Of a stretch of 64,000 nucleotides of DNA, positions 35,821 to 50,077 are shown piece after piece. Origin of the DNA: Candidatus Marinacidobacterales bacterium (GTDB lineage: Bacteria > Acidobacteriota > Vicinamibacteria > Marinacidobacterales > SMYC01). Each line of letters begins with the position of its first letter. Positions within the stretch are counted from its first letter, which is position 1. Both the position numbers and the translations under genes were made by a program. The stretch spans positions 1,440,001-1,504,000 of the forward strand of contig OZ250169.1 of the NCBI GenBank assembly GCA_965237955.1, given 5' to 3'. A model generated the notes under the pieces. The model saw nothing but the letters and a program-made list of their open reading frames with translations, did not search any database and had not been told where the DNA came from.

Positions 35821-36803
35821 TCAGTCCTCAGGCTCCAGAGTTATGATGACATTTCCCTTCTTGCGCCCGGTGTCGACGTAGCTGTGAGCCTCGGCGATTT
35901 GCTCGAACGGATAGCGCCGATCAATGACCGGTTTGAATTCTCCGGCCTCAGCCAGTTCCGCGAGGAAACGCAAATCCTCTGCGTGCCCGGGTGCTGGCCC
36001 AGCGATTACTTTCTTGCTGCTTGTCATCGACACCCATGGAATCTGAAGCATGTCTAGCAGCCCACCTAAAACCAGAAGAAGGCGTCCTTTCTCTTTCAAC
36101 GAACGTTTGCTACGGGAGAACGGAGCCGTGCCGGCTGTATCGACAATGACGTCATAGGTTTCACCGTTTTCCGTAAAATCCTCTTTGGTGTAATCGATTA
36201 CATGATTGGCACCCAGAGATCTCACCATTTCCACGTTCGCGTCACTGCACACCCCGGTCACGTCTGCCCCGAAATGCTTGGCAAGCTGCACCGCACAGCT
36301 GTTCCTACCCCTCCGGAGGCGCCATTGACGAGTACTTTTTCTGCGCTCTGAAGGTTTCCTCTTCTGAAGAAATGCAACGCCGTTGTTCCGCCAAAAGATA
36401 TTGCGGCGGCTTTATCGTAGGTCAGATTGGCCGGTTTTAGTGCCACCGCCCCGTCTTCTGGCATGCATTTGTACTCCGCATGGCAACCCATGCCGGCACC
36501 GCTGAATGCAAAGACCTGGTCACCGACTTTGAATTTGTTTACGTCTTTGCCGACCGATTCAACTTCCCCGGCGAGCTCTGTCCCTAGAATAGGTTGCCTT
36601 GGTCTCGAGACTCCAAAAACCAAACGCGAGATGAACCCGAAGCCGACAGGCACATCGAGACTGCGCGCCCTCCAGTCCCCTGATGTTACCGTTGTCGCAT
36701 GTGTTTTTATCAAGACTTCATTGTCCTTGGGCGTGGGCTTTCCCACCTCCTTCAATTCAAGAACATCGGGCGGCCCATATCTTTCATACACAATTGCTTT
36801 CAT
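35821..36803 (-). pseudogene. NAD(P)-dependent alcohol dehydrogenase / quinone reductase (MDR), frameshifted near 36292
   Basis: YGPPDVL and NGASGGVGT in one frame, VQLAKHFGA...GRKKGNV in another. An IS sits 9 bp upstream of the ATG. Confidence 0.85.
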
Positions 36804-36875
36804 ACGTCGCCCGGTAGTGGTCTAGTTTGAAATCGAGGCCGCTGGATAGACGCTTGCCTTGTGGTATCCTGTGGT

Positions 36876-37121
36876 ATGCCTACACGAGCAAGCAAGAAAA
36901 AGAGGCCACGTGATACCAATCAACTTGCCTGGCAGATCGTACAGGAAGCTACCGGCCAGGCCCCGCTAGAAGAAGAGGAAGAAGACACGCGGAATCCTGC
37001 CGCTGTGGCTCTCGCGAAGCTGGGTGCGTCCAAAGGCGGTAAGGCTCGAGCTAAAAAACTCAGCCCGGAGCGAAGGGCTGAAATCGCCCGAAAAGCGGCA
37101 AAAACCAGATGGAAAAAGTGA
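36876..37121 (+). CDS. Small basic IS-associated protein ('histone H1-like')
   Basis: RPRDTNQLA...NPAAVALAKLGASKGGKARAKKLSPERRAEIARKAAKTRW; TG-G-TATCCT box just upstream. Confidence 0.8.
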   Translation: MPTRASKKKRPRDTNQLAWQIVQEATGQAPLEEEEEDTRNPAAVALAKLGASKGGKARAKKLSPERRAEIARKAAKTRWKK

Positions 37122-37285
37122 ACACGGGCTGTAATTAATCGCGTTGGTCTGGCTAGACGACCTATCGTGAAATGTAACTTCCCTCTACTGTAAATAACAA
37201 CAGCCCAGACGCAATCGCAGACGCCTAGTCCCTGTTACGATTTCTGGGTTGCGCCGTGTCCGCCTTCCTGTTACACTGATTAATC

Positions 37286-37681
37286 ATGGAAGCGAGAGAA
37301 GAACTACTTCAGCTGAGACAGCGTCTATCGGGCCGAATTGACGTCTTGCGCGCCGAGCTGGAAACCGTAGACGCATCGATCCGGCTCATCGAAAGAGAGA
37401 AAGGACTCGAACCCGCTTCTCACGGTGAGTTTGCGGAGATGGGCTTAACCGAGAGTTGCCTACGGATCCTTGAGGCTGACTTTCGCTCGCCGACGGAAGT
37501 CCGAGACCTTCTGATCCAGGGCGGCTATCCGAAATCAGACAGAAAGAAGCTTCTCGGATCCGTTTATGCCACTTTGAAGAGACTTCACGATGCGGGAAAA
37601 GTTGAGTTCCGAAAACGGCGTGGAGTAGGAGGACGAAAATATCGAGTAAAACACTACACTGCTGAACCGAGCGAAGAATAA
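37286..37681 (+). CDS. Hypothetical coiled-coil + winged-HTH-like protein
   Basis: Heptad-like N-terminus, then SPTEVRDLL...SVYATLKRL...GKV...KY; TG-T-TACACT box upstream. Confidence 0.65.
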   Translation: MEAREELLQLRQRLSGRIDVLRAELETVDASIRLIEREKGLEPASHGEFAEMGLTESCLRILEADFRSPTEVRDLLIQGGYPKSDRKKLLGSVYATLKRLHDAGKVEFRKRRGVGGRKYRVKHYTAEPSEE

Positions 37682-37708
37682 AGGGCGGGGCTCGAAAAAG
37701 CCCCGCCC
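37674..37708 (-). terminator. Intrinsic terminator on the minus strand (possibly bidirectional)
   Basis: GGGCGGGGCT...AGCCCCGCCC stem (37683-37708) followed on the minus strand by TTTATTCTT. Confidence 0.7.
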
Positions 37709-37910
37709 ACAGCACTCTTTTCAGTTTCCGGTCCTTCGGTGTGTTCACGCACATCGAAAAACATGGACCGGAAAAGAAGGAGGTAAGACGATGAAAGTAT
37801 GCTTCATCGTAGCCGTATTTCAGACGGCCAACGGATTTTACGCCGTGGTCGTCTGGATAATACGGCCCCCCGCTCCGGGTTGCTCCGGGGCGGGGACGCC
37901 TCCACTTTTC
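37675..37910 (-). ncRNA. Candidate structured non-coding RNA inside the IS
   Basis: Own promoter (TTACAA-17-TATCAT) and terminator; five mutually compatible stems visible by eye. Confidence 0.5.
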
Positions 37911-37982
37911 GTTTGCATGATAGCGCATAAAGGGCTGTTTTGTAACCCCAAAAATATCGGGAGAAGTGTCGTTTTTGCTTGA
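37791..37982 (+). CDS. Small ORF with hydrophobic N-terminus (candidate type I toxin)
   Basis: AAGGAGGT 6 nt before ATG; MKVCFIVAVF...FYAVVVWII; antisense to the candidate RNA. Confidence 0.4.
   Translation: MKVCFIVAVFQTANGFYAVVVWIIRPPAPGCSGAGTPPLFVCMIAHKGLFCNPKNIGRSVVFA
37917..37945 (-). promoter_or_regulatory. Sigma70-like promoter of the candidate RNA
   Basis: Minus strand TTACAA (37940-37945), 17 nt spacer, TATCAT (37917-37922). Confidence 0.5.
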
Positions 37983-38007
37983 CAATGCGTGCGCGAGCAA
38001 GCATAAT
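37976..38007 (+). promoter_or_regulatory. Transposase promoter with overlapping inverted repeat
   Basis: TTGACA-17-CATAAT, 7 nt before ATG 38015; TGCTTG...CAAGCA overlaps both boxes. Confidence 0.75.
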
Positions 38008-38014
38008 GTCTATT

Positions 38015-38839
38015 ATGAACAAGCTAGATACGAAACGACGAGTGCATGTGGTCAAGGCTCTGGTCGAGGGCAATAGCCTTCGTGGAACAGCGCGGATGAC
38101 GGGCGTTGCGCGGGCGACGGTCGAGAAGCTGCTTCGAGAGCTCGGCTACGTTTGCGCCATGTATCAGGACGTCGCCTTTCAGAACCTGCCCTGCCGGAGA
38201 ATCCAGGTCGATGAGATCTGGTCGTTCACCTACGCGAAAGCGAAGAACGTCGCACGGGCGAAAGCGGCACCCGAGGGCGCGGGCGATACCTGGACCTGGA
38301 CGGCCATTGATGCGGATACCAAGCTTGTCCCGTGCTGGCTCGTAGGGGGCCGTGACGCTGGCTACGCGACGGAGTTTCTACAGAACCTCGCGGGACGGCT
38401 TGCCCACCGCGTGCAGCTCACCAGCGACGGGCACAAATGCTACCTCCAAGCCGTCGAGGATGCGTTCGGCGGGGATATCGACTATGCCATGCTGGTCAAG
38501 CACTATGGGAACGCGCCCGAAGGTCAGAGGCGATACAGCCCCGCCGTCTGCACCGGAGCGACGCGGATGCGCGTTACCGGCGACCCCGACGACGCGCACA
38601 TCAGCACCAGCTACGTCGAGCGCCAGAATCTCACGATGCGGATGGCGATGCGGCGGTTCACACGGCTAACGAATGCCTTCTCGAAGAAGGTCGAGAATCT
38701 AAAGCACTCGGTCGCTCTACACTACATGTACTACAACTTTGTGCGGATCCACAGCTCGCTGCGCGTGACCCCGGCGATGGCGGCTGGCGTCACCAACAAG
38801 CTGTGGAGCATCGAGGACATGATTGGGCTGCTAGATTGA
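38015..38839 (+). CDS. IS1-like DDE transposase
   Basis: N-terminal HTH (EGNSLRGTARMTGV), QVDEIWSF, TSDG, TSYVERQNLTMRM and TPAMAAG motifs. Confidence 0.9.
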   Translation: MNKLDTKRRVHVVKALVEGNSLRGTARMTGVARATVEKLLRELGYVCAMYQDVAFQNLPCRRIQVDEIWSFTYAKAKNVARAKAAPEGAGDTWTWTAIDADTKLVPCWLVGGRDAGYATEFLQNLAGRLAHRVQLTSDGHKCYLQAVEDAFGGDIDYAMLVKHYGNAPEGQRRYSPAVCTGATRMRVTGDPDDAHISTSYVERQNLTMRMAMRRFTRLTNAFSKKVENLKHSVALHYMYYNFVRIHSSLRVTPAMAAGVTNKLWSIEDMIGLLD

Positions 38840-38920
38840 AACACGTAAAGATACTTGAGCCCAAAACAGATGGGAAGGCAAGCTCCCTCGGGGCGTCGCG
38901 TCTCCCGTAGTCTGGTTTCC

Positions 38921-39334
38921 TTAGATATCCTCAAAAAGGATCTGTTTCAAGGCAAGTCTGAGAATCTGCCACGGTTGGTACTGCCCTTCACCATCGATCG
39001 TATATCGGCAGTCCCCATCATTATTCAATTCTATTTTTAGAATGAGCGGGCCGTTACCAATTCGGGTTACGGAAATGTGGTCCGCCATCAGTCGGAACGT
39101 AACGTCAGCGGAACGTAGAAGAACTCCATCTTGCGGAGCTCTTGAGACTACGAGTTCCGTGTTGTCTTCTCCTGGTTCGCTAAACGACACGTCAAAACCA
39201 TCTTCTCGCTTGAGGCTTCGCTTTCTGCGCGTTACGTCATTTTGGGCTTGCAGCACAAGTTTTAGAAACTCATTCGATAATGAGCAGTCGAGTTGCGCCT
39301 GAACCCAGTCGAAATCGTCCGGTTTTGGACTCAT
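38921..39334 (-). CDS. Hypothetical passenger protein (AT-richer)
   Basis: 137-aa ORF converging on the transposase, inside the terminal IRs; no recognisable motif. Confidence 0.6.
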   Translation of the reverse strand: MSPKPDDFDWVQAQLDCSLSNEFLKLVLQAQNDVTRRKRSLKREDGFDVSFSEPGEDNTELVVSRAPQDGVLLRSADVTFRLMADHISVTRIGNGPLILKIELNNDGDCRYTIDGEGQYQPWQILRLALKQILFEDI

Positions 39335-39526
39335 TGCAATCAGTCTACTACAGGTCGTCATTCAAGTGCTACCACCGGCTTGGCCCGAGCTGCTATGGAG
39401 CATCGAGGATATGTTGGGGCTGCTGGATTGAAACTAGACCACTACCCGTCGCCCTGCAGGGTTGCTTTGATCCGGTCATTGTGGTCAGGCTAGCAGCTCC
39501 CGGGCCGGGACGATGGCGCCCGGTGT

Positions 39527-49387: not shown

Positions 49388-49966
49388 ATGGAGCTGACCC
49401 GAGACGAAGCCTGGACCCACTTGTGCGCATGGACGGAGACGGATTCGTTGCGCAAGCACGCGCGCGCGGTGGAGCTCGTCATGCGCCAGGCCGCTCGACG
49501 ATACGGCGACGGCGACGGCGACGAGGAGACCTGGGGCGCCACCGGCATGCTGCACGACGCCGACTACGAGAAGTGGCCCGAAGATCACCCGAACCGAATC
49601 GTTGCCTGGCTCCGCGATCGTGGCGAGGAAGAGCTCGCTTACGCCATCTCGGCGCACTATACGAAATGGAACGTACCCTACAAGAGCGCTCTCGACAAAT
49701 CTCTTCTCGCCTGCGACGAGCTCACCGGCTTCATTGTTGCCTGCTGTCTCGTACGCCCCGAAGGCGTCTCCACACTGAAATCGAAGAGCGTAAGAAAGAA
49801 ACTCAAAGACAAGGCATTCGCCGCTAAAGTGGAGCGCGCCGAAATCAACGCGGGGGCCGAGCTCCTGGAAGTCGAGCTGGCCGAGCACATCGATTTCATC
49901 ATCGACGCCCTCAAGCCGCACGCCGAAGAGCTGGGAATCGGGGGTAGAGATCTCGGAAACGCCTAG
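49388..49966 (+). CDS. HD-superfamily hydrolase
   Basis: LRKH, LHDADYE, DELTG and KDKAFA motifs; GGAGG RBS. Confidence 0.88.
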   Translation: MELTRDEAWTHLCAWTETDSLRKHARAVELVMRQAARRYGDGDGDEETWGATGMLHDADYEKWPEDHPNRIVAWLRDRGEEELAYAISAHYTKWNVPYKSALDKSLLACDELTGFIVACCLVRPEGVSTLKSKSVRKKLKDKAFAAKVERAEINAGAELLEVELAEHIDFIIDALKPHAEELGIGGRDLGNA

Positions 49967-49971
49967 TTTTC

Positions 49972-50065
49972 AACGCAAAGGCGCGAAGTCGCAAGGGCGC
50001 AAAGTGAAGAGCGCCTTCGGCGCTGATTCTTGCTTTGCGTCTTTGCGACTTGGCGCCTTTGCGTT
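49972..50065. repeat. REP-like palindrome of CGCAAAG units between convergent genes
   Basis: 33-nt inverted arms (49972-50004 and 50033-50065) around an agcgcc-ttc-ggcgct hairpin. Confidence 0.8.
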
Positions 50066-50077
50066 AAGAAAGAATCG

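Follow-up and report, generated by a model that had tools for sequence, protein, structure and literature searches.

An IS1-family insertion sequence of a 'Candidatus Marinacidobacterales' bacterium carries, between a winged-helix gene and its transposase gene, a strongly folded unit that encodes a short hydrophobic peptide on one strand and a predicted antisense RNA on the other. We put the probability that this unit works like a type I toxin–antitoxin (TA) locus, one belonging to no known family, at about 0.5. The unit is real, conserved, and uncatalogued, but rare. An earlier note on this DNA had raised the type I TA idea, which has since gained support from a conserved Shine–Dalgarno (SD) sequence, a hairpin at the start codon, indels that preserve the frame, a pair of anti-SD elements, a terminator conserved on the minus strand, and a location in a TA and defence slot; the structured molecule is likely the plus-strand mRNA and not, as the note had it, the minus-strand RNA. 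Positions are those of the window, i.e., the whole 64,000-nt stretch of DNA that was analysed.

The Host Element

The unit belongs to a cargo-carrying element of 2,634 bp (36813..39446, plus strand). The element is bounded by terminal inverted repeats (36813-36831 and 39428-39446) and an 8-bp target-site duplication, the left copy of which (36805..36812) is identical to the eight bases at 39447-39454. These ends and the 8-bp duplication, together with an IS1-type DDE transposase, place the element in the IS1 family. The transposase (274 aa; 38015..38839, plus strand) matched Pfam DDE_Tnp_IS1 above the cut-off (E 4.8e-6) and the NCBIfam IS1 model with an E-value of 7e-15, under that model's equivalog cut-off. 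The element is single-copy in its own genome (one full-length blastn match in G000). Its gene order is small basic protein, 131-aa winged-helix protein, folded unit, transposase, and second cargo gene.

The gene for the small basic protein (36876..37121, plus strand; start at 36861 according to the ORF finder) is a regular companion of this transposase clade. A plus-strand tblastn match to it was detected in 76 of the 80 sister loci compared, and the protein matched no Pfam or NCBIfam family. The transposase promoter, TTGACA-17-CATAAT (37979..38007, plus strand), is strong, with 11 of 12 consensus positions. Among the 80 sisters, a -35-like word was found 34-38 nt upstream of the transposase ATG in 69, and an SD-like word in one; the transposase mRNA is likely leaderless. 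The second cargo gene (146 aa; 38921..39361, minus strand) is bracketed by a duplication of the transposase 3' end, a 43-bp direct repeat with 88% identity (38800-38842 / 39392-39434); this arrangement suggests that cargo is gained or lost via recombination at the repeat. The gene is absent from the nearest sister element (L001).

The insertion lies immediately 5' of the start codon of a gene similar to zinc-type alcohol dehydrogenases (35821-36803, minus strand), which is split across two overlapping frames near 36258-36291. Elsewhere in the window, an intergenic palindromic REP-like repeat with dozens of genome copies (49965-50070) is unrelated to the folded unit. In the same genome, a tRNA-Cys(ACA) was called by ARAGORN directly upstream of another IS1-like transposase (G000:C1:1295353-1295426).

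Copies of the Unit

Three full copies of the unit were found, in the window, L001, and L096, and run X6 contains part of a fourth allele. The copies are 76-81% alike, and in each full copy the unit lies between a winged-helix gene and a transposase gene. L001 comes from a 'Candidatus Marinacidobacterales' genome (G015) of the same family as the window's genome and is 76% identical to the window over the unit and its flank. L096 was recovered in a metagenome scan; L097, from the same scan, was a false match and was rejected.

Searches for further copies were otherwise blank. Its DNA matched only G015 among 101 related genomes and nothing among plasmids and phages, and viral contigs matched neither of two DNA patterns nor the winged-helix alignment. 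RNA-model searches yielded the window and G015 among 141 genomes and one copy in the window's own genome; the model built from the three copies found those three alone among 93 sources. A 32-bit match among the 141 genomes proved to be an isolated GC hairpin that follows a stop codon and was rejected. With the peptide profile, the window alone was significant among 401 genomes of the phylum; 25 other matches had E-values of 0.001-0.05 per genome, which is about chance level. Rfam gave no match at the gathering score in the window, and the best E-value over 37100-38100 was 1.9.

Structure of the Folded Unit

The sequence features described in the earlier note could be located again. On the minus strand, these are the promoter TTACAA-17-TATCAT (37945-37917), the terminator with its stem at 37708-37683 and T-rich tail, the GGAGG/CCUCC pairing that closes three hairpins, and the TTCCGGTCC/GGACCGGAA hairpin. 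On the plus strand, they are the SD sequence AAGGAGGT (37777-37784) and the frame of a 63-codon ORF (37791-37982). Near-complete folding was borne out as well: the minus strand has a minimum free energy (MFE) of -121.1 kcal/mol (z -8.56), and 0/200 shuffles were as good. The plus-strand fold of the 246-nt stretch has an MFE of -136.7 kcal/mol (z -11.67), again with 0/200 shuffles as good, and lies 57.6 kcal/mol below the GC-matched expectation from 260 window tiles (residual sd 8.4).

In order of position, the first of the parts is H1 (37683..37708, minus strand), the predicted intrinsic terminator of the antisense RNA, which was called in all three copies. The remaining elements are on the plus strand. 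An upstream anti-SD (37713..37722) is followed by the long leader hairpin H2 (37725..37774), which is kept in all three folds and, in L001, has changed from U-A to C-G at two sites, both double changes. Next come the SD sequence (37777..37784), of which AGGAGGT is kept in all copies, and H3 (37788..37810), a hairpin that buries the start codon; it is paired at 8/8 positions in every copy, with one G-C to A-U double change and one G-U site. The long hairpin H4 (37812..37866) lies within the ORF, and its core, including a conserved U-G pair, is identical in the three copies. In the GC-rich hairpin H5 (37868..37895), one position is U-G, U-A, or C-G across the copies, giving one double change. 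Last comes the downstream anti-SD (37896..37910), in long-range pairing with the SD, with predicted duplex energies of -16.1, -15.7, and -10.5 kcal/mol in the three copies. A tRNA origin of the four-way fold was considered and rejected, with no tRNA call at the unit by Rfam or ARAGORN.

The earlier note had taken the minus-strand unit for the structured RNA. That strand does fold, but the plus strand folds better in all three copies (z -11.7, -12.4, and -8.3 versus -8.6, -10.2, and -4.9), and only the terminator favours the minus strand. Allowing G-U pairs gained 18.8, 20.8, and 22.6 kcal/mol on the plus strand versus 6.0, 11.3, and 9.6 kcal/mol on the minus strand. The anchored helices H2-H5, read on the plus strand, contain 99 oppositions over the three copies, comprising 89 Watson–Crick, 10 G-U, and 0 A-C; the 10 G-U cells represent six distinct sites, and the plus fold guided the choice of the helix anchors. 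H1 on the plus strand has 30 oppositions, of which 28 are Watson–Crick, none G-U, and two A-C; its two non-Watson–Crick positions become G-U only on the minus strand.

Other counts were less clear-cut. In a cruder tally, with loop-flanking positions counted too, there was no asymmetry between G-U and A-C (7/9, 11/9, and 11/13). RNAalifold reported double-changed pairs at 11 of 66 pairs in the minus-strand alignment and three of 71 in the plus-strand alignment, these being automatic alignments with visible misalignment on the minus strand; the consensus energy of the minus strand (-76.8) was worse than that of the plus strand (-85.5). Three sequences cannot reach significance for covariation. 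On balance, the pairing patterns suggest that H1 is a minus-strand terminator and H2-H5 the structure of a plus-strand message. The folded molecule is likely the mRNA of the peptide, and the minus-strand RNA its full-length complement.

Predicted Control of Translation

Both the SD and the start codon are predicted to be paired in the full-length folds of all three copies. In 3'-truncated folds, which represent the nascent mRNA, the SD pairs with the upstream anti-SD (37713-37719 in the window, the equivalent in L001, and partly in L096). Once the downstream anti-SD has been made, the SD switches to it in the window and L096; in the corresponding fold of L001, the SD stays paired upstream.

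The antisense RNA predicted from the placement of promoter and terminator spans 37675..37910 on the minus strand (~235 nt; about 230-238 nt among the copies). It is complementary to the leader, the SD, the start codon, and the conserved part of the ORF. Its divergent promoter (37917..37945, minus strand) has the -10 boxes TATCAT, TATCAT, and TATCCT in the three copies and the -35 boxes TTACAA, TTCTAA, and TCCCAA, which are good in one copy, fair in one, and poor in L096. The promoter scored 9/12 in a scan that found two sites against 1.3 expected; taken alone, the promoter sequence is weak evidence.

The Peptide

The 63-codon ORF described earlier (37791..37982, plus strand) stands as a frame but not as a length. 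The copies have 63 (window), 25 (L001), and 43 (L096) codons, the tail past codon ~25 is not conserved, and in L096 a 1-nt difference within the loop of H5 shifts the frame. Contigs of the public runs X3, X4, and X5 are identical to the window across the ORF region, so the 63-codon frame does not stem from a sequencing error. Conservation is confined to the first ~24 codons, and the start (ATG or GTG) and the SD are kept in all copies. This core (37791..37862, plus strand, 24 codons) consists of a hydrophobic run, a Q-T-x-x-G turn, an aromatic residue, and V-x-V-W-I. Between the start codon and the Gln, the three copies have spacings of 10, 13, and 11 codons and the X6 allele one of eight, in frame throughout, and the turn contains another 3-nt indel. 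Over 18 codons of the three copies, changes at the first, second, and third codon positions number 8/4/11 and are mostly swaps among V, I, and F. The third base of the Gly codon differs among all three copies.

The core is leucine-free, and V/I/F/T/Y/W account for 15-17 of its 24-25 residues. Its maximum 19-residue Kyte–Doolittle value (1.65-2.06) is borderline hydrophobic. AlphaFold2, run with a 3-row alignment, placed strands at residues 5-13 and 16-24 with a mean pLDDT of 87 over residues 11-20, so the core is predicted to be a beta-hairpin; the model is of a water-soluble style, and the membrane state may differ. An alpha-helical transmembrane segment, a feature of membrane type I toxins, was not found in the model. 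A fold search gave a weak best match (E 0.69). The ORF had no match in Pfam, NCBIfam, or PHROG and no usable match in the ESM Atlas; among 5.8 billion proteins it matched itself alone, ORFs so short being often not called.

Two reading frames on the minus strand were considered and rejected. The mirrored ATG in H3 opens just 20, 31, and 3 codons in the three copies, with no SD, and a 204-aa ORF is broken in L001.

The Winged-Helix Gene

A gene for a 131-aa protein (37286..37681, plus strand) precedes the unit in all three full copies. The AlphaFold2 model (pLDDT 83.6) has a helix at residues 2-39, predicted to form a coiled coil, and then a winged helix-turn-helix domain. The top Foldseek matches were weak and were to Fur/PadR/MarR-type regulators (best E 0.0055). 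The predicted promoter of the gene, TTGCGC-17-TACACT (37249..37277, plus strand), occupies the same site as in L001 and L096, where the -35 box reads TTGACA and TTGACG; the window's own version was missed by the promoter scan. No plus-strand promoter nearer to the peptide was seen in the three copies, and H1 lacks a U-tail on the plus strand; from these two observations, we infer a two-gene message. The plus-strand mRNA of the peptide likely starts from the winged-helix promoter. A 9-bp box upstream of this promoter (37214..37222, plus strand) is present exactly in the window, L001, L096 (twice), and L108, another locus with a winged-helix relative, and is possibly an operator. The box also looks like the invariant arms of H4, perhaps by coincidence.

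Protein searches yielded six matches, five of which were further close winged-helix proteins (P0001-P0005), and there was no match on plasmids. Relatives of the winged-helix gene were found at 11 other loci, none of them matched by the RNA model. At five of these, a tRNA-like gene lies just downstream on the same strand (minus strand; L100:1226-1325, L101:1244-1328, L102:1344-1426, L106:1286-1385, and L108:1280-1352). The Rfam tRNA model matched at five of the eight loci scanned, and ARAGORN made calls at three of 11. The anticodons are TAA (L101), TTA (L102; it would read a stop codon), and AGC according to ARAGORN (L108); those read by eye are CCA on a Ser-like body (L100) and CAA (L106). 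A transposase-like ORF follows the tRNA-like gene, judged by eye, in at least L100, L101, L102, and L108. The combination of a winged-helix gene and a tRNA looks like a recurring cassette of mobile elements. Separately, L098 (1400-1500) and L108 (1395-1490) contain a convergent small-RNA candidate of ~90 nt with a TTGACG-17-TAnnnT promoter; as in the window, it ends at a hairpin directly past the winged-helix stop codon, but the peptide is absent.

Phage P22 has an antisense-RNA switch-off in its sar/ant genes, and by analogy the peptide could be a non-toxic regulator under the same RNA control, for example one that counteracts the winged-helix protein as an anti-repressor or one that modulates the transposase. 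We consider this rather unlikely. The peptide does follow the winged-helix gene in every full copy, and a beta-hairpin of borderline hydrophobicity would be better suited to docking on the edge of a sheet than to crossing a membrane. The winged-helix relatives at the 11 other loci, however, indicate that the partner is not needed, and double burial of the SD combined with a full-length antisense RNA is a typical safeguard for a harmful product.

The Cargo Slot in Sister Elements

The best 80 of 431 transposase relatives served as the sister set. The unit was present in one of these 80 IS1 elements and missing from 79, all of which keep the transposase. When the 240 nt upstream of the transposase promoter were folded in 81 stretches, only the window and L001 had z below -9; the next-best fold had z -5.7. 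On this comparison, the unit is cargo and not a core RNA of the insertion sequence.

Other elements carry other genes at this position. The slot contained 161 ORFs in total, of which 100 were scanned against Pfam and 22 against PADLOC. The families recognised were HigB, HTH-IrrE, Panacea, Fic, HipA-like, GmrSD, STAND, P63C, RhuM, SDH protease, HARE-HTH, PD-Lambda-2_B, RmrT (RmrT-like), and PDC-M63/M66. A HigA-IrrE-like (HTH-IrrE) gene on the minus strand was detected by blastp in 35 of 80 loci; the one scanned matched PD-Lambda-2_B (E 4e-40). Judged by gene content, the region from the basic gene to the transposase serves as a swappable defence/TA slot with a divergent promoter.

Several further structures were seen in the slots. 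A tRNA-like gene lies right upstream of the transposase promoter in L007 (Gly-CCC), L011 and L013 (both Ser-GCT; 2785-2860 in L013), and L077 (Leu-TAG; 2670-2763). In L007, L011, and L013, it is preceded by a gene on the plus strand, a hairpin, and an SD with an ORF of 9-10 codons, and a divergent promoter faces it. Related minus-strand HARE-HTH genes in L019, L034, L038, and L080 have structured leaders (z -3.5 to -5.7) located 100-300 nt upstream of the transposase, and in L019 and L034 an SD and a 5-codon ORF were visible by eye. Another minus-strand structured leader is shared by L012 (2700-3000; z -5.7) and the window's genome (G000:C1, about 700-950 nt upstream of 6450188), where it precedes different small genes in two IS1 elements.

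The position of the antisense promoter is also that of other cargo. A minus-strand ORF of at least 85 aa starts 50-260 nt upstream of the transposase ATG in 52 of 80 loci, and in 37 of 80 such an ORF starts 85-115 nt upstream of it; the predicted start of the antisense RNA is 105 nt upstream. The RNA's 'own promoter', as claimed earlier, is thus present but not special to the RNA, being at the element's usual position for a divergent cargo promoter. This generic position makes the antisense promoter more believable, yet less specific to the RNA.

The same position would fit a unit that is only a decaying remnant of a once-functional small-protein gene, with the antisense promoter left over from earlier cargo (105 nt versus 85-115 nt in 37/80 sisters). 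The variable stop position and the very few copies point the same way. We nevertheless find a remnant quite unlikely, as the helices are intact, with double changes, in copies 76-81% alike, and the terminator and the -10 box are kept in all three.

A further explanation, which we regard as improbable, is that the unit, with its folded leader, short ORF, and convergent RNA, serves as a read-through brake shielding the transposase gene from the winged-helix promoter, in which case the peptide sequence would matter little. The ORF tail is free to vary, and L098 and L108 also have, by eye, a convergent promoter and terminator past the winged-helix gene without the peptide (fold z -6.0 and -2.8). 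A brake would not account for a peptide core that keeps its frame and hydrophobic residues; moreover, the transposase is served by a separate strong promoter, likely giving a leaderless mRNA, and its message lies outside the antisense RNA.

Finally, the suggestion in the earlier note that the minus-strand product is a functional non-coding RNA of the insertion sequence, working with the transposase or the basic protein, is highly improbable despite its promoter, terminator, and fold (z -8.6): it is absent from 79/80 sister elements, while the basic protein is found in 76/80, conservation with the transposase as in bridge- or guide-type RNAs was seen at 1/80 sister loci, and the inner-helix changes suit the plus strand, i.e., the opposite strand, which is under coding constraint.

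Proposed Mechanism

The preferred reading remains a locus that works like a type I TA system. Transcription from the promoter at 37249-37277 would yield a two-gene message, encoding the winged-helix protein and then the peptide, by reading through H1. During transcription, the SD would be caught by the upstream anti-SD and later by the downstream one, with the start codon locked in H3. The divergent cargo promoter would supply the ~235-nt antisense RNA, ending at H1, which would pair with the message and lead to cleavage by RNase III; a role for this enzyme here, beyond the aapA1 and yonT precedents, is our assumption. If the antisense supply stopped, through loss of the element or phage shut-off of the host, the surviving message would be trimmed or refolded and the peptide made. 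The peptide, predicted as a hydrophobic beta-hairpin, would then harm the cell, resulting in addiction or abortive defence, like the genes that it replaces in the slot. The winged-helix protein would repress the shared promoter.

Several points weigh against the type I reading, among them the poor -35 box of L096 and the large sizes of both RNAs. The peptide, as modelled, is a leucine-free beta-hairpin of borderline hydrophobicity, unlike helical membrane toxins. The variable ORF length (25, 43, and 63 codons) could mean decay. The generic position of the promoter need not reflect selection for an antisense RNA.

Comparison with Known Systems

The unit resembles Ibs/Sib in its full-ORF antisense layout, in which the small ORF is covered from end to end by an RNA from the opposite strand (PMC8594479), and in a very short hydrophobic peptide. 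Ibs is a helical peptide, and membrane type I toxins are helical (PMC8309996). The unit differs from Ibs/Sib in its leucine-free predicted beta-hairpin, its ~235-nt antisense RNA, a message likely shared with the winged-helix gene, and carriage by an IS1 element, and Rfam gave no Sib match for it. Sizes deviate as well. Usual type I antisense RNAs are 60-200 nt and messages 150-400 nt, as typical ranges and not strict limits (PMC8594479); the likely message (>600 nt) and the predicted antisense RNA (~230-238 nt) exceed both. With respect to the type I ORF size of about 20-60 aa, L001 (25) and L096 (43) are within the range and the window (63) is just over.

In aapA of H. pylori, the SD is buried by transient upstream hairpins and then by the full-length fold (PMC5416894, PMC6733600). 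Activation of both AapA/IsoA and Hok/Sok requires 3' trimming (PMC5416894, PMC6733600; for hok, PMC8594479, PMC5367252). The predicted double burial of the SD in the unit is similar to these systems. The unit has no sequence or Rfam similarity to them, its peptide type and host phylum are different, and IsoA and Sok, unlike the predicted antisense RNA, do not span the whole ORF (PMC8594479).

The yonT/SR6 system of the B. subtilis prophage SPbeta has a type I toxin on a polycistronic message and a convergent antisense RNA, which is the arrangement inferred for the unit (PMC5848175). SR6, by comparison, is 100 nt long and overlaps gene ends, and no winged-helix gene is described in the abstract of PMC5848175. 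Similarity between yonT/SR6 and the unit was judged by Rfam and Pfam, both blank.

As a carrier, the element is like cargo-carrying IS1-family elements (transporter IS), which have a single-ORF transposase, GGTA-type ends, an 8-bp duplication, and cargo upstream. We take ISMhu11 to be the subgroup name of such elements. Their cargo, like that of TA-carrying Tn3 transposons (PMC7157771), is often a TA/defence gene pair. The Tn3 pairs described there are type II, and the phrase 'type I TA' is absent from that paper. The cargo described here is an RNA-controlled peptide gene and not a protein–protein pair.

Neither Rfam nor the peptide profiles linked the unit to an established type I family (Ibs/Sib, AapA/IsoA, Hok/Sok, or others). 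No description of the module turned up among titles and abstract openings of open-access papers on type I TA systems of IS1 and other insertion sequences, on toxins with a beta-hairpin fold, on tRNAs as passenger genes, or on Acidobacteria. A relative could be present in T1TAdb or in the tables of candidate toxins by Fozo et al. (2010).

The reach of these findings is set by three full copies and one partial allele, with a function predicted from sequence. From the sister comparison, a swappable defence/TA slot behind a divergent promoter emerges as a feature of this IS1 clade. If the type I reading is true, a type I-like locus with a predicted beta-hairpin peptide on a small insertion sequence would widen the range of hosts, vehicles, and toxin folds of such systems.
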